Below are positions 7,085 through 53,966 of a stretch of DNA of 64,000 nucleotides, piece after piece. The notes below the pieces were generated by a model. That model did not search any database. It saw nothing but the letters and a program-made list of their open reading frames with translations, and was not told the DNA's origin. This stretch comes from a virus. How positions within the stretch are numbered: position 1 is the first letter of the stretch; the number at the start of each line of letters is the position of its first letter. The position numbers and the translations under genes were made by a program. The stretch spans positions 64,001-128,000 of the IMG/VR virus record IMGVR_UViG_3300045988_115074. The stretch is one strand, 5' to 3'.

Positions 7085-7131
7085 ATGTCTTAATGTATTT
7101 TAGATTTTTTCAAACATATACTACTATAGTG
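7074..7131 (+). repeat. 58-bp intergenic repeat, copy 1 (terminator tail plus promoter)
   Basis: Identical to 11184..11241 except for one base (by-eye alignment). Confidence 0.85.
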
Positions 7132-7151
7132 GAAAGAGAGAGGAATCTTTC
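7108..7151 (+). promoter_or_regulatory. consensus phage promoter core plus leader hairpin (P1)
   Basis: tttcaaacatatactactatagtg, then gaaaga/tctttc hairpin. Confidence 0.6.
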
Positions 7152-11195: not shown

Positions 11196-11241
11196 TGTCT
11201 TAATGTATTTTAGATTTTTTCAAACATATACCACTATAGTG
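11184..11241 (+). repeat. 58-bp intergenic repeat, copy 2
   Basis: See 7074..7131. A 21-nt piece, aatgtattttagattttttca, recurs at 40581..40601. Confidence 0.85.
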
Positions 11242-11263
11242 AAAGAGAAGAAGAATCTTCTTT
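11218..11263 (+). promoter_or_regulatory. consensus promoter core plus leader hairpin (P2)
   Basis: tttcaaacatataccactatagtg, then agaaga/tcttct hairpin. Confidence 0.6.
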
Positions 11264-11298: not shown

Positions 11299-11580
11299 AT
11301 GTCACGTAAAGATAACTTAAAAAAATATGGTAACCTGCTGCACAACGCAGCAACTAAATCTTCTTCTAAAGAGACTGTAGAGGATGTGATCATTATTGAA
11401 GAAGTCGCAGTGGTTACTACAACTGAATCCTCAAATGAAGAACTAGTGGGAGCGACAGAACTTCCAACTACACATTCCTATATAGAAGGTATCTCCCCAG
11501 ATACTTTAGAAGAAGAGGAAGAGGAAAAAATCGGAGGAAAATACCTCCACAGTATTTTCCCAGATACTTTGGAAGATTAA
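11299..11580 (+). CDS. small acidic protein (93 aa) with internal PDTLE(E/D) repeat
   Basis: Consensus promoter, hairpin and AAGGAG SD upstream; terminator downstream. My count is about 21 D/E against 8 K/R. Confidence 0.8.
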   Translation: MSRKDNLKKYGNLLHNAATKSSSKETVEDVIIIEEVAVVTTTESSNEELVGATELPTTHSYIEGISPDTLEEEEEEKIGGKYLHSIFPDTLED

Positions 11581-12084: not shown

Positions 12085-12128
12085 CTACTAGTAGAAGGAT
12101 TTCCTTCTACTAGTAGCGTATATTTTTT
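12085..12128 (+). terminator. intrinsic terminator
   Basis: 15-bp stem ctactagtagaagga / tccttctactagtag, followed by tatattttttt. Confidence 0.8.
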
Positions 12129-12136
12129 TGAATATT

Positions 12137-12159
12137 TTCAAACCTATATTATTAAAGTG
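12137..12159 (+). promoter_or_regulatory. consensus promoter core (P3)
   Basis: ttcaaacctatattattaaagtg; the downstream hairpin is weak. Confidence 0.5.
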
Positions 12160-12188
12160 AGAATTATCTTTATATAAAGGAATTTAAA

Positions 12189-15442: not shown

Positions 15443-15811
15443 ATGAAATATCGTGGTTTTGCAAATAATGTTATAAAATACATTAATAAGTATTTTTGTA
15501 AATACAAATCTAAAACCAAATTTAGTAAAATAGAATATTGTACATTCAAACGAAGAATTTATACAGAATGGTACTTCGACGAAGATATCTCATTTGAAGA
15601 TATTTACAAAAGAGAATTTATCAATGACTGGGTAAACCGTTCTCGTCTTAATCTTACCCACATGGGTTATGCCTTAAATGGTAAACAAACATCAGGTGAA
15701 AAGCTCTTTACTGGGTTTAAACCTAATCATGCGATTGTTATTGGTGCAGTACGTAATAACAACCAATCAACCATTAAGCAATTACCTATCCCTTATAAAG
15801 GAGGTCAGTAA
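15443..15811 (+). CDS. hypothetical basic protein (122 aa)
   Basis: ORF with AAAGGAA RBS; very AT-rich codons. Confidence 0.7.
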   Translation: MKYRGFANNVIKYINKYFCKYKSKTKFSKIEYCTFKRRIYTEWYFDEDISFEDIYKREFINDWVNRSRLNLTHMGYALNGKQTSGEKLFTGFKPNHAIVIGAVRNNNQSTIKQLPIPYKGGQ

Positions 15812-16027
15812 ATGAAGTATACGTTTATATACAAACCTGTATTAAATGTTATTCTAAAACATTTATACCGTTATAAACATATCAATAAGTTTACAAGAAA
15901 TAGTTTAGATAAACTAAAACAAGATAATGTTGATAAGATATACCATGCCTGTCCTAAACTTATACGTAATTCTTGTAATGCTAAAGGCCCATTCTTTTTA
16001 CAAATCTTAAAAGGTAAAAGTGTTTGA
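15812..16027 (+). CDS. hypothetical basic protein (71 aa)
   Basis: AAAGGAGG SD; start abuts the upstream stop. Confidence 0.65.
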   Translation: MKYTFIYKPVLNVILKHLYRYKHINKFTRNSLDKLKQDNVDKIYHACPKLIRNSCNAKGPFFLQILKGKSV

Positions 16028-16100
16028 ACTACAGGGTAGTCCAGACGACTTAGATGTAGAACACCCAAGTTGTTTGAATTATTTCTATATTCTAAAATAT

Positions 16101-16143
16101 TTCAAATACATACTATTTAAGTGAAAGAGTGGAATTATCTTTC
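16101..16143 (+). promoter_or_regulatory. consensus promoter core plus leader hairpin (P4), drives the ORF-less unit
   Basis: ttcaaatacatactatttaagtg, then gaaaga/tctttc hairpin. Confidence 0.55.
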
Positions 16144-16207
16144 AATCTTTCTTCATATCATTTTTCTCCTAAACGTTCTATATTGCGGAACGCTAAATAA
16201 AGCAATA

Positions 16208-16227
16208 CACACCCTGGTGCAGGTGTG
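16208..16227 (-). terminator. candidate terminator for the minus-strand 59-codon ORF
   Basis: Stem cacacc(c)tg / caggtgtg. On the minus strand it is followed by tattgctttattt. Confidence 0.35.
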
Positions 16228-16252
16228 CCCCGAAAAATGCACTATCTTTAAT

Positions 16253-16432
16253 TCAGAGTGAATGAGGTGTTTCCTCTTCCCTTTCCACCTTAGTTGCTCT
16301 GGGTTGAAAGTTACATAGTAAACTCCCTTTGAGATACTCACCCCGACAAAGGGTGAGTATCTTTTTTTTACCATATGAATTATTTTTTTGATTATCTAGA
16401 TATTCTTCAATATCTGCTAGATGCTTATCCAT
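16253..16432 (-). CDS. candidate small protein (59 aa), below the ORF-track cutoff, antisense to the candidate ncRNA
   Basis: My translation is MDKHLADIEEYLDNQKNNSYGKKKILTLCRGEYLKGSLLCNFQPRATKVERKRKTPHSL. RBS TTTAAAGGAAATTATAAAATG is almost identical to that of 14977. Hairpin 16208-16227 plus a T-rich run follows its stop. Confidence 0.45.
   Translation of the reverse strand: MDKHLADIEEYLDNQKNNSYGKKKILTLCRGEYLKGSLLCNFQPRATKVEREEETPHSL
16333..16369 (+). terminator. intrinsic terminator ending the ORF-less unit
   Basis: 11-bp GC-containing stem gatactcaccc / gggtgagtatc followed by T8. Confidence 0.85.
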
Positions 16433-16485
16433 TTTATAATTTCCTTTAAACGTATGACTACTAATTATATAGTAAAGGACATACT

Positions 16486-21473: not shown

Positions 21474-21507
21474 ATACAGGTACCCTAAATGAATAGGGTA
21501 CCTGTAT
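21474..21507 (+). terminator. intrinsic terminator
   Basis: 13-bp stem atacaggtaccct / agggtacctgtat, then an AT-rich tail. Confidence 0.7.
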
Positions 21508-21517
21508 ATTTAATTTA

Positions 21518-21567
21518 TTTTAAACCTATATTATTTAATTGATGAGATATTCCTTTGATATATATCT
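21518..21567 (+). promoter_or_regulatory. consensus promoter core plus leader hairpin (P5)
   Basis: ttttaaacctatattatttaattg, then agatat/atatct. Confidence 0.5.
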
Positions 21568-24881: not shown

Positions 24882-24917
24882 TTACTCTACTGACCTCGTA
24901 TAGGGGCCAGTAGAGTA
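24882..24917 (+). terminator. terminator-like hairpin
   Basis: 14-bp stem with one mismatch: ttactctactgacc / ggccagtagagtaa. Confidence 0.6.
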
Positions 24918-24930
24918 ATAAGCTATTTTA

Positions 24931-24987
24931 ATTTAAATGTATACTATTTAAATGGTAATAGAGAAAGTGTTTAACTCTTTCTCTATT
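24931..24987 (+). promoter_or_regulatory. consensus promoter core plus leader hairpin (P6)
   Basis: atttaaatgtatactatttaaatgg, then an 11-bp stem aatagagaaag/ctttctctatt. Confidence 0.5.
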
Positions 24988-25016
24988 TAAGTTTATTAAT
25001 AAATAATAAAAGCGAC

Positions 25017-25052
25017 TACTCTATACTCCTGTTACAGCAGGAGTATAGAGTA
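25017..25052 (+). promoter_or_regulatory. 15-bp perfect-stem hairpin in the 5' leader of the small ORF at 25081
   Basis: tactctatactcctg / caggagtatagagta with loop ttacag. No T-run follows on the + strand. It sits 18 nt upstream of the AAGGAGGTGA SD. Confidence 0.5.
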
Positions 25053-25080
25053 AAACATGTCGCGGAAAGGAGGTGAAAAA

Positions 25081-25221
25081 ATGGATATGTATTTAGTGCA
25101 AATCCTTCAGAACAAAGTTCTGTGCGGTATAGAACTTTCAGATAGCGAAAAACGCTATCTGGAAAAATACGAACAGTCGAAAAACGACGTGTTCGCTAAT
25201 TGGTTAGCAAATAATTACTAA
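25081..25221 (+). CDS. small protein (46 aa; 54 aa if the in-frame ATG at 25057 is used), not in the ORF track
   Basis: Strongest SD in the window (AAGGAGGTGA), own promoter (24931) and terminator (25231). Sequence: MDMYLVQILQNKVLCGIELSDSEKRYLEKYEQSKNDVFANWLANNY. Confidence 0.6.
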   Translation: MDMYLVQILQNKVLCGIELSDSEKRYLEKYEQSKNDVFANWLANNY

Positions 25222-25230
25222 CCTCACCAA

Positions 25231-25267
25231 AGAAAAGTAATATTAGCAGTATTACTTTTCTTTTTTT
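25231..25267 (+). terminator. intrinsic terminator
   Basis: 12-bp stem agaaaagtaata / tattacttttct running into a T-run. Confidence 0.75.
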
Positions 25268-25306
25268 CCTTTCATAGTAAAGAAGTTAAAGAATTAATTA
25301 ATATTA

Positions 25307-25350
25307 ATTCAAATCTATATTATTATATTGAAAACGATTGATATAATCGT
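25307..25350 (+). promoter_or_regulatory. consensus promoter core plus leader hairpin (P7)
   Basis: attcaaatctatattattatattg, then acgatt/aatcgt. Confidence 0.5.
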
Positions 25351-27676: not shown

Positions 27677-27994
27677 ATGACAATTCTTAAAAATAAAAAT
27701 AAACGTCGTAAGATGTTTATTGAAATAAGGCATTTAGAAAAGAAAACTGACGAATTAGCTAAATATTTAATCACCACTGGTAATGTTGCCGGTGTAATGC
27801 GTGGTATTGAAATATTGATGCGAAGTCCTAACGTCACCGGTGAAAGAAAGGGATTTACTGATATCACTGAATTTGGTACTAAAATAACAACGCCTCCCGA
27901 TACTACTAGTAAAGAGAGAATATCTGCCTATATCTCTACAGTAGAATATTCCCACAATATCCCCCTTGGTAAACCCTCCCCAACTAAATCTTAA
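27677..27994 (+). CDS. hypothetical protein (105 aa), paralog of 27172..27648
   Basis: See 27172; AAAGGAA RBS. Confidence 0.75.
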   Translation: MTILKNKNKRRKMFIEIRHLEKKTDELAKYLITTGNVAGVMRGIEILMRSPNVTGERKGFTDITEFGTKITTPPDTTSKERISAYISTVEYSHNIPLGKPSPTKS

Positions 27995-27998
27995 AATA

Positions 27999-28045
27999 TT
28001 TTAAACCTATACTACTACAGTGAAAAGGATGATGATTCCTTTCAC
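27999..28045 (+). promoter_or_regulatory. consensus promoter core plus leader hairpin (P8)
   Basis: ttttaaacctatactactacagtg, then gtgaaaagga/tcctttcac. Confidence 0.6.
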
Positions 28046-40173: not shown

Positions 40174-40210
40174 TAGAAAGAGTAGGATTACCCTACTCTT
40201 TCTATTTTTA
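40174..40210 (+). terminator. intrinsic terminator
   Basis: 13-bp stem tagaaagagtagg / cctactctttcta followed by ttttt. Confidence 0.8.
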
Positions 40211-40225
40211 TTATGTTCTATTTTA

Positions 40226-40269
40226 TTACAACTATATACTACTAAATTGAAAGAGAAGAGGACTTCTCT
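40226..40269 (+). promoter_or_regulatory. consensus promoter core plus leader hairpin (P9)
   Basis: ttacaactatatactactaaattg, then agagaag/cttctct. Confidence 0.55.
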
Positions 40270-40303: not shown

Positions 40304-40582
40304 ATGGAAATAGATATGCAATCGTTTTTGAAAAAACAAAAACAAATGCTGAAAGAAGACTTGTCTTCTTTAAATAAAGTTAAGTCTAAACTGAAGAAAA
40401 CACATGATGAAGTAAATACTGAACTATGTGTTCAAACGGCTATTAGACCACCATTTGGATTTGATAAAAACATTAATGCTAAGATTAGTGAATTACGTAG
40501 TTTGAAGGCTAAACTACATTCACAGCTACTTGTTATTAATAAGCAGATTGAAGACATCGAATCTGCTATTGAAAACATCTAA
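40304..40582 (+). CDS. small coiled-coil protein (92 aa)
   Basis: Full consensus cassette upstream. Confidence 0.75.
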   Translation: MEIDMQSFLKKQKQMLKEDLSSLNKVKSKLKKTHDEVNTELCVQTAIRPPFGFDKNINAKISELRSLKAKLHSQLLVINKQIEDIESAIENI

Positions 40583-40596
40583 TGTATTTTAGATTT

Positions 40597-40648
40597 TTTC
40601 AGATACATATTACTAAATTGAAAGAGAGGAAAATTATTTCTTCTCTTT
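40597..40648 (+). promoter_or_regulatory. consensus promoter core plus leader hairpin (P10)
   Basis: tttcagatacatattactaaattg, then a ~12-bp stem aaagagaggaaa/tttcttctcttt. Confidence 0.55.
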
Positions 40649-43798: not shown

Positions 43799-44059
43799 AT
43801 GAAATACTTAGTTCTTCCTATTTTACTTTCTTTAGTAGCATGTACTACACCGACTAAAGTAAAAGAATATGTAGCTTACGATTGTCCTATTCCAAACGTA
43901 TGTGCTGAACCTATTAAACGCCAAGAGATTAAAACCAATGGTGATTTAGTGAAAGCATATGTAGAAGTAGTACAAGAGAATGAAGAATGTCGTATTGTAG
44001 TCAATACATTAACACAATGTATTCGTCAATCTCAAGACATTATCCGTAAGTCTAATTAA
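43799..44059 (+). CDS. o-spanin (Rz1-like outer-membrane lipoprotein)
   Basis: Perfect lipobox LVAC (MKYLVLPILLSLVAC). Small mature protein with five further Cys after the lipobox Cys. Separated, non-embedded architecture. Confidence 0.7.
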   Translation: MKYLVLPILLSLVACTTPTKVKEYVAYDCPIPNVCAEPIKRQEIKTNGDLVKAYVEVVQENEECRIVVNTLTQCIRQSQDIIRKSN

Positions 44060-44070
44060 ATTATAGATTA

Positions 44071-44117
44071 TTTTAAACATATATCATTATAGTGAAAGGG
44101 ACGACGGTTCCTTTCAC
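44071..44117 (+). promoter_or_regulatory. consensus promoter core plus leader hairpin (P11)
   Basis: ttttaaacatatatcattatagtg, then gtgaaagg/cctttcac. Confidence 0.6.
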
Positions 44118-45573: not shown

Positions 45574-45607
45574 TAGGTAGTGAACTAATCTCACTACCTA
45601 TTTTTTT
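45574..45607 (+). terminator. intrinsic terminator
   Basis: 10-bp stem taggtagtga / tcactaccta followed by T7. Confidence 0.8.
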
Positions 45608-45614
45608 GAATATT

Positions 45615-45646
45615 TTCAAACCTATATTATTAAACTGAGATATCTC
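45615..45646 (+). promoter_or_regulatory. consensus promoter core (P12) with short palindrome
   Basis: ttcaaacctatattattaaactg, then gagatatctc. Confidence 0.5.
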
Positions 45647-53851: not shown

Positions 53852-53919
53852 TTTGTTATTCCTTTTTACTATAAGGTTATTCATATCTTTCCATTGTCCT
53901 TTATACCTTAATCTAAGAT

Positions 53920-53966
53920 AATTTAAACCTATACTATTAAAGTGTACAAATCTATTAGATAGTACA
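53920..53966 (+). promoter_or_regulatory. consensus promoter core plus leader hairpin (P13)
   Basis: aatttaaacctatactattaaagtg, then a tgtac..atcta/tagat..gtaca hairpin. Confidence 0.55.

Follow-up and report, generated by a model that had tools for sequence, protein, structure and literature searches.

A candidate structured non-coding RNA between a phage promoter and an intrinsic terminator in an uncultured oral jumbo phage

What is made from a phage locus that has a complete promoter and a strong intrinsic terminator, but no evident gene between them? Such a locus lies at 16084-16369 of the 64,000-nt stretch of viral DNA analysed here (the window; positions 64,001 to 128,000 of IMG/VR record IMGVR_UViG_3300045988_115074), whose sequence recurs unchanged within a 237-kb contig assembled from a human oral metagenome (ENA ERZ989697) and whose GC content is 33.7%. 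An initial annotation, made from the letters of the window, had proposed either a phage small RNA (sRNA), or an antisense RNA paired with a small protein from an open reading frame (ORF) on the opposite strand, or both. We rate the chance as somewhat better than even that 16084-16369 is an autonomous phage unit making a structured non-coding RNA of about 249 nt, a candidate regulatory sRNA; this interpretation is plausible and moderately supported, chiefly by comparison with natural variants of the same unit.

The unit opens with the motif TTTCAAAY.CATACTATTTAAGTG, which ends at 16123. The window contains 13 copies of this motif, every one on the + strand, with the family consensus TTTCAAAC.TATACTAYTA.AGTG. 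The full copy of the promoter core that had been reported at 16101-16123 is borne out by a position weight matrix (PWM), in which it scores 48.1, among the top five of the 13, with no site outside the family above 12 on either strand; the matrix was built from the 13 copies themselves, and the test is to that extent circular. The other 12 copies are followed, within about 100 nt or less, by a ribosome-binding site (RBS) and a start codon, many of them after a purine-rich 5′ hairpin (GAAAGAGARGA...), and the minus-strand genes of the window lack the promoter family. In relatives at 44-59% protein identity the same motif again precedes genes, mostly 32-76 nt before the start codon, and Cronobacter phage CR5 has a similar site within an intergenic region. 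Because the motif recurs in this way in distant relatives and in CR5, it represents a true family of promoters in this group of phages, presumably akin to the AT-rich TATATTAC-type early promoters of phiKZ. The genes behind it in the window are mostly hypothetical, with one gene of nucleotide metabolism among them, which suggests early or middle expression for the class. Transcription of the unit would start at or near the terminal GTG of its promoter.

At its other end, the unit closes with an intrinsic terminator that the initial annotation had called the best in the window, with an 11-bp stem and T8. The T8 is the longest T run among the window's strongest ranked terminator-like hairpins and the terminator is strong, but the stem has 13 pairs and, at -20.8 kcal/mol against -26.4 kcal/mol for the most stable hairpin of the window, it is one of about ten strong terminators and not the most stable. 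Between these two ends, the predictions that the unit would be richer in GC and more structured than other intergenic DNA both held: its GC content is 39.4%, compared with 21-34% in all other intergenic gaps of at least 100 nt in the window, its minimum free energy (MFE) is -73.6 kcal/mol, and the fold has a z-score of -5.3 for the whole unit and -3.6 for the core without the end hairpins. Searches of the unit against Rfam, at both permissive and gathering thresholds, and with ARAGORN gave nothing; the best sub-threshold Rfam match (E = 0.66) covers the terminator only.

The comparison rests on 14 distinct variants of the unit, that is, the window and related contigs (L002 and others), which derive from several human oral and other metagenome assemblies, are 241-249 nt long and are 82-93% identical to the window. 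Three routes led to them: a search of IMG/VR with the 554-aa protein encoded just downstream of the unit, an exact-pattern scan of metagenome contigs with the loop sequence described below, and a search of GTDB genomes with the same 554-aa protein; they represent few independent lineages. The 554-aa protein itself is distantly homologous, at 20-27% identity, to virion proteins of phiKZ-like jumbo phages, among them those of RSF1, RSL2, Goslar, PhiPA3 and phiKZ (PHIKZ098), and phiKZ_IP domains are present on related contigs. Among GenBank phages the window has no match at the DNA level, and for the unit, searched with megablast and blastn, there is no homologue, the sole match being the promoter-like site of CR5. 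Homology between the variants begins about 45 nt upstream of the promoter's GTG, spans the whole unit and extends beyond the terminator, while the flanks vary: upstream, a cassette with a 54-aa gene is present or absent, and downstream, the window carries a deletion. From these homology limits and differing flanks, the conserved module is the promoter-to-terminator interval. The promoter, the terminator and all of the helices are retained in 14 of the 14 variants.

Coding potential is not retained. No ORF is conserved across the 14 variants on either strand of the unit, and frameshifting 1-nt indels fall within all of the candidate ORFs. The earlier statement that no + strand ORF exceeds 18 codons is correct for ATG starts (the longest begins near 16262), but a mechanical ORF list adds two unconserved + strand GTG ORFs, of 46 (16121..16261) and 23 codons, together with a 73-codon ORF on the minus strand. 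Through point changes and 1-nt indels, the other variants have the 46-codon ORF only in a shortened form of 23-45 codons or not at all; the 18-codon ORF has lost its ATG in L004, L045, L033 and L043, and the minus-strand ORF, of 61-73 codons, is disrupted in five variants. The product of the locus might in principle have been a small + strand protein, made from the 46-codon GTG ORF or the 18-codon ATG ORF, both of which do exist in the window; as these ORFs are shortened or lost among the variants, and neither has an RBS, we rejected this reading and allow it a very slim probability. The + strand unit is, on the sequence evidence, predicted to be non-coding.

What is retained is the fold. RNAalifold and explicit counting of pairs give five helices: a 5′ hairpin, three internal helices (P2, P3 and P4) and the terminator (Table 1). 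The 5′ hairpin, proposed earlier as a leader hairpin at 16123-16143, is real but longer, reaching 16151; it has 11 pairs, with 98.7% of cells paired, and one G-C to A-U double change. The two further hairpins proposed at 16174-16192 and 16208-16227 are confirmed by the folds as P2 and P3. P2 is the clearest case of a stem kept through sequence change, reading CGTTC/GAACG in the window, ACGTCT/GGACGT in most variants and ACATCC/GGATGT in L043, and compensatory changes in two pairs. P3 is invariant except for one mismatch in L048. In P4, eight pairs have one-sided changes that G-U pairing accommodates, and one pair is found as CG, UG and UA; P4 should be specific to the + strand, because its G-U pairs become C-A mismatches on the other strand. 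The CU-rich tract noted earlier at 16270-16289 is also confirmed, its first 16 nt (16270-16285) forming the apical loop of P4, unpaired in both the MFE and the consensus folds.

Taken over all stems of the MAFFT alignment, 98.1% of the cells hold standard pairs, compared with 42-53% when the partners are slid by 1-3 columns, and four pairs show changes on both sides where 0.7 would be expected (0 of 500 shuffles reach this number). An alignment of the 14 sequences fitted to the model gives a similar picture (98.5% paired; 0.6 double-changed pairs expected in shuffles), with the reservation that such an alignment leans towards the structure to which it was fitted. Paired columns are variable in 27% of cases and unpaired ones in 43%. 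In most variants, the + strand gives the core a more stable fold than the minus strand does (+ strand z -0.5 to -3.8). Four invariant runs of 18-21 nt, a pattern that 0 of 20,000 permutations match in the five sequences used for it, cover the linker after the 5′ hairpin (18 nt), the A-rich stretch with the 5′ arm of P3 (16195-16215, 21 nt), GGTG with the CU loop (20 nt), and the 3′ arm of the terminator with T8. Aligning the locus across relatives had been suggested as a way of telling conserved base pairing from a conserved reading frame; pairing is preserved, with compensatory changes, and no frame is. The sRNA half of the initial annotation thereby gains comparative support, from a module present in 14 variants, the lack of a conserved ORF, the maintained structure and the + strand bias in stability.

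Table 1. Features of the candidate RNA unit and its surroundings (window coordinates).
Feature	Position	Strand	Remarks
Phage promoter copy	16084..16123	+	TTTCAAAT.CATACTATTTAAGTG; repeat families D1/D2/D4, PWM; core intact in relatives
Predicted non-coding RNA, about 249 nt	16121..16369	+	From promoter end to terminator T-run
5′ hairpin	16123..16151	+	16123-16134 pairs with 16140-16151; type common to many transcripts of the promoter class
Invariant pyrimidine-rich block	16146..16163	+	TCTTTCTTCATATCATTT; 3′ arm of 5′ hairpin and single-stranded linker
Hairpin P2	16174..16192	+	Three haplotypes, each with a 5-6-bp stem
A-rich stretch and hairpin P3	16195..16227	+	P3 CACACC/GGTGTG at 16208-16227; invariant run and fold
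Long stem P4	16247..16308	+	About 20 pairs, many G-U; bears the apical loop
CU-rich apical loop	16270..16285	+	UUUCCUCUUCCCUUUC; 16 nt, closed by GGUG/CACC, contains unpaired UCCC
Intrinsic terminator	16331..16369	+	13-bp stem (16331-16363), 7-nt loop, T8
59-codon ORF	16253..16432	-	Chimeric deletion stub; codons 17-59 read antisense of terminator and P4
RBS and first 16 codons of lost 258-aa gene	16385..16452	-	MDKHLADIEEYLDNQK; tblastn
Deletion junction, T-run microhomology	16383..16389	.	Comparison of window with L002
Other promoter copies	7090-7151, 11200-11261, 12121-12162, 21503-21544, 24918-24954, 25292-25333	+	Repeat family
Other promoter copies, continued	27981-28042, 40208-40269, 40579-40640, 44053-44114, 45599-45640, 53908-53944	+	Repeat family

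The second half of the initial annotation concerned the opposite strand, where a 59-codon ORF with an RBS (16432..16253) had been noted to overlap the unit. The ORF exists, and in the window, as predicted from its sequence, the overlap is 117 nt. In L002, however, about 700 bp more separate the terminator from the 554-aa gene, and within this space lies a 258-aa gene on the minus strand, which begins MDKHLTDIEEYVDNQK and has its stop codon inside the T8 run of the terminator. By tblastn, this gene is intact, or intact to the contig end, in every other variant, and has homologues in the more distant relatives L013 (50% identity) and L014 (36%), whereas in the window only residues 1-16 of the protein match, at 16432-16385. 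The protein belongs to phrog_5043 (PHROGs), a family of unknown function, and a Pfam search with it found nothing. A deletion of about 700 bp has thus fused 16 real codons to antisense non-coding sequence, which makes the convergent overlap accidental, and the 59-codon ORF is not a gene but the stump left by this deletion, which has so far been observed in the contigs of this genome only. The exact 59-aa sequence occurs on only 4 contigs, one of them shown to come from the window's own sample (ERZ989697).

These facts decide against the arrangement that had been compared with type I toxin-antitoxin or antisense-regulated loci, in which the 59-aa peptide would be the effector and the + strand RNA its antisense regulator. 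The likeness to type I loci with convergent 3′ overlap, such as txpA/RatA and par of pAD1, lies in a small ORF with a good RBS and a convergent RNA that are predicted to overlap by about 117 nt, in the window only. The ORF is a deletion chimera in which only codons 1-16 have homology, namely to the N-terminus of the 258-aa protein; the frame of codons 17-59 falls beyond the intact 258-aa stop in every other variant; and the peptide is hydrophilic (grand average of hydropathy -1.0, maximum 15-residue Kyte-Doolittle value 0.7), with no hydrophobic segment. We rejected the toxin-antitoxin reading for these reasons and leave it next to no probability; the 59-codon ORF has no part in the function proposed for the RNA.

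A different role for the unit would be that of a cis-antisense or termination-zone element of the convergent 258-aa gene, left over in the window. In the ancestral arrangement, the mRNA of the 258-aa gene would pass the + strand terminator without stopping and run antisense through the 3′ two-thirds of the unit to a minus-strand terminator at P3, and the resulting duplex of about 160 bp would control the stability of that mRNA, much as OOP of lambda, a short antisense RNA that converges on the 3′ end of cII, does for cII. It fits this reading that the 258-aa stop codon lies within the terminator T8 in every variant except the window's deletion allele, that no U-run follows the terminator hairpin on the minus strand, and that P3 with its A-rich flank, the longest invariant block, reads on the minus strand as a hairpin followed by a U-rich tail. 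This last signal, although flagged as terminator-like, is weak, and L013 and L014 have a homologue of the 258-aa gene without the RNA unit. Moreover, the G-U pairs of P4 and the strand-biased stability point to selection on the + strand fold, and the unit of the window genome is still intact after loss of the 258-aa gene. The unit resembles OOP in having its own promoter and terminator and in abutting the 3′ end of a convergent protein gene, and differs from it in that the ancestral unit lies outside the coding sequence, with only the stop codon in the T-run, so that any overlap is with a putative 3′ untranslated region. We regard a cis-antisense role as possible, although unlikely.

Several observations weigh against an sRNA, and some of them favour a non-functional relic, that of an orphan promoter module which was spread by recombination among promoter copies, or remained after its gene had decayed, and by chance precedes the terminator that originally served the upstream operon, with neutral drift of the sequence in between. 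Among the five sequences found through the 554-aa protein, 24% of columns vary in the unit and 26% at third-codon/fourfold sites of the 554-aa gene, and pairwise divergence is 10-21% in the unit and 10-17% at third positions of the 554-aa gene; tested against the synonymous sites of this gene, the unit has no overall conservation above neutral. Its phylogenetic reach is short. Presence in relatives, which had been named as a check, is confirmed by 14 variants of the same species-level clade, but the unit is absent at the matching position in L013 and L014 (58% and 51% protein identity), the former having just a similar-looking terminator between the upstream gene and a 261-aa homologue of the 258-aa protein. 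A covariance model built from 13 variants and searched against the window and 26 loci of more distant relatives found no credible copy in stretches of about 10-20 kb from relatives at 44-59% identity. The unit is a recent element at the level of the species, or else a mobile one.

The comparative signal has limits of its own, which also tell against the sRNA. Each compensatory change is seen in only one or two sequences, and in L043, the most divergent variant, the core shows no gain in stability over shuffled sequence (z-score of about -0.5). Since the loop sequence served as bait for eight of the 14 variants, their loop invariance is by construction; the other six (the window, L002-L005 and L048), obtained independently of the bait, also have the CU loop unchanged. 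A relic would further be in keeping with a locus that is a hotspot for indels and cassette shuffling. Against a relic stands the fact that none of the 14 variants has lost promoter, terminator or any helix, and that substitutions are clustered and leave the four long invariant blocks untouched. Compensatory and wobble-preserving changes exist, the unit stands out from the intergenic DNA here by its high GC content, and no trace of a decayed ORF is common to the variants. On balance, we consider a relic unlikely.

The remaining difficulty for the sRNA concerns its targets. The initial annotation had suggested a sponge directed against Shine-Dalgarno (SD) sequences, on account of the partial complementarity of the CU-rich tract to the phage's own SD consensus. 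The loop does pair with RBS windows better than with random 28-mers (-6.8 and -3.4 kcal/mol, respectively), and purine-rich mRNA leaders likewise exceed random sequence; of 32,000 windows, the 25 or so with which it pairs best include five of the 13 promoter leaders (GAAAGAGARGAGGA). Loops shuffled at constant composition, however, are almost as good, 12.5% of them reaching the observed mean pairing with RBSs and leaders. Support for anti-SD pairing comes from base composition only. The narrower idea, that the loop is specifically antisense to the 5′ leaders of the promoter class, was rejected on the same shuffled-loop control as mostly an effect of composition. The best trans site for the loop in the window lies at 11505-11528, downstream of the promoter at 11200 (UUUAGAAGAAGAGGAAGAGGAAAA, -20.9 kcal/mol); as this site is a GAA/GAG repeat, the match is probably again an effect of composition.

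A second loop that deserves attention is that of the terminator. Its stem is invariant among the variants, while the loop (16344-16350; L002 3153-3159) reads CGACAAA in the window, L021, L024, L037 and L043, and is flipped to TTTGTCG in L002, L003, L005 and L029; a second pair of sequences, CGAACGAA in L045 and L048 and TTCGTTCG in L004 and L033, stands in the same relation. Since both loop sequences occur in both orientations, this implies at least two independent inversions of the hairpin loop.

These inversions bear on the idea of an RNA anti-CRISPR, in which the terminator hairpin would mimic the repeat of a host type III-A system and trap Cas6/Csm; type III is the RNA-targeting CRISPR class reported to reach nucleus-forming phages. 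The stretch GATACTCACCCCGA--CAAAGGG (16333-16353) aligns with the 36-nt staphylococcal III-A repeat GATCGATACCCACCCCGAAGAAAAGGGGACGAGAAC (PMC12336165) with a gap of 2 nt, 19 of the 21 aligned positions being the same. Nowhere else in the 64-kb window is this repeat matched as well, only 0.2% of shuffled repeats score equally, and one related contig has been binned with a metagenome-assembled genome (MAG) of Gemella (Bacillales). The comparison was, however, made post hoc, after several repeats had been tried mentally; the 3′ third of the repeat is unmatched; and in 7 of the 14 variants the loop is inverted, so that the RNA strand keeps only half of the match. L013, moreover, has a similar-looking terminator at the same place, and the repeats of the host may differ from the staphylococcal one. 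A search of plasmid and phage collections found no CRISPR arrays with the terminator sequence. We give a very faint probability to the anti-CRISPR as such, and hardly more to the wider notion of a counter-defence RNA that combines the III-A mimic, possibly, with a function of the pyrimidine loop; the evidence leans against both.

How does the predicted RNA compare with known ones? The sRNAs of lytic jumbo phages are known to exist, and a function has been assigned to almost none. ONT-cappable-seq on phiKZ and 201phi2-1 has revealed short RNAs between a transcription start and a nearby terminator, among them the 141-nt intergenic TU237 RNA of phiKZ, confirmed by northern blot, and 11 sRNA candidates of 201phi2-1, with functions unknown (PMC10914365, PMC11512511). 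The unit described here likewise belongs to a phiKZ-related jumbo phage, is intergenic and free of conserved ORFs, and has a phage promoter followed by a terminator within less than 250 nt. The remark of the initial annotation that no known family could be recognised therefore holds as regards Rfam, but the kind of element is documented in phiKZ-like phages. The unit does not correspond in position to the conserved sRNA upstream of phiKZ gp182/201phi2-1 gp277 (“sRNAgp182”), as its neighbouring 554-aa gene matches PHIKZ098 and not gp182, and, unlike the phiKZ and 201phi2-1 RNAs, it is confined to one species-level clade. As a predicted RNA, it is a new and apparently unrelated addition to these short promoter-to-terminator RNAs.

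A more distant parallel may be drawn with the SD-targeting Rsa RNAs and RNAIII of Staphylococcus aureus, in which a 5′ hairpin and a terminator accompany an unpaired UCCC within the most conserved region (PMC2790875). As in RsaE, other Rsa RNAs and RNAIII, the unit has a 5′ hairpin and a terminator and would display an unpaired UCCC in a loop, here within a 20-nt invariant block; by analogy it might act in a similar way. Unlike them, it is phage-encoded and without Rfam homology, and its host phylum may differ from Bacillota.

On the host, the indications are of two kinds. A MAG that bears the label “uncultured Gemella sp.” includes L048 (CALHQV010000351.1), a 30.5-kb contig of the same phage species, and in a published survey some oral phages that encode chimallin were predicted to have Neisseria hosts (PMC12625630). 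In its GC content, the window agrees better with Gemella than with Neisseria.

The surroundings of the unit are prone to indels and cassette shuffling. A second ORF-less unit was suspected at 24913-25290, behind the promoter copy at 24954, and rejected, as this copy drives a 54-aa ORF with a strong RBS. The cassette of promoter, 54-aa gene (MSRKGGEKMDM..., 25057..25221) and terminator spans 24918-25312, and a 29-bit covariance match at 25081-25268, a candidate second copy of the RNA unit, was dismissed for the same locus, being the 54-aa gene and its terminator in poor alignment. L002, L003 and L005 have a copy of this cassette, about 80% identical (L002 2605-2860), inserted immediately before the RNA unit, and the window and L004 are without it there. 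Because the right-hand flank shared by the cassettes enters a promoter copy, this suggests that cassettes are shuffled by recombination between promoter modules. Further upstream of the unit, at 15443-16027, there are two small ORFs of 122 and 71 aa, each starting MKY, the former with a GIY-YIG match at E = 0.039, below the Pfam cut-off; they may be remnants of a homing endonuclease in an indel-prone region.

Returning to the sRNA that we favour, we propose the following mechanism as the most likely one. A promoter of the class that drives 12 nearby genes would start the RNA of about 249 nt, and the strong intrinsic terminator would end it. The RNA would fold into a protective 5′ hairpin, two short hairpins, the G-U-rich stem displaying the CU loop, and the terminator hairpin with U8. 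It may then act as a base-pairing sRNA, its exposed pyrimidine loop pairing with purine-rich stretches, SD-like or in leaders, of mRNAs from the phage or the host, and the pyrimidine-rich linker at 16146-16163 possibly pairing with such mRNAs as well.

The locus also holds a warning for the reading of such genomes. A small ORF that overlies a non-coding RNA may, even with a perfect RBS, be the scar of a fresh deletion, and a handful of close relatives suffices to expose it. If transcribed, the unit would give an uncultured oral jumbo phage an sRNA gene of clearly defined extent, with the invariant CU/UCCC loop as its candidate interaction surface and 14 natural variants that could be used to guide mutagenesis.

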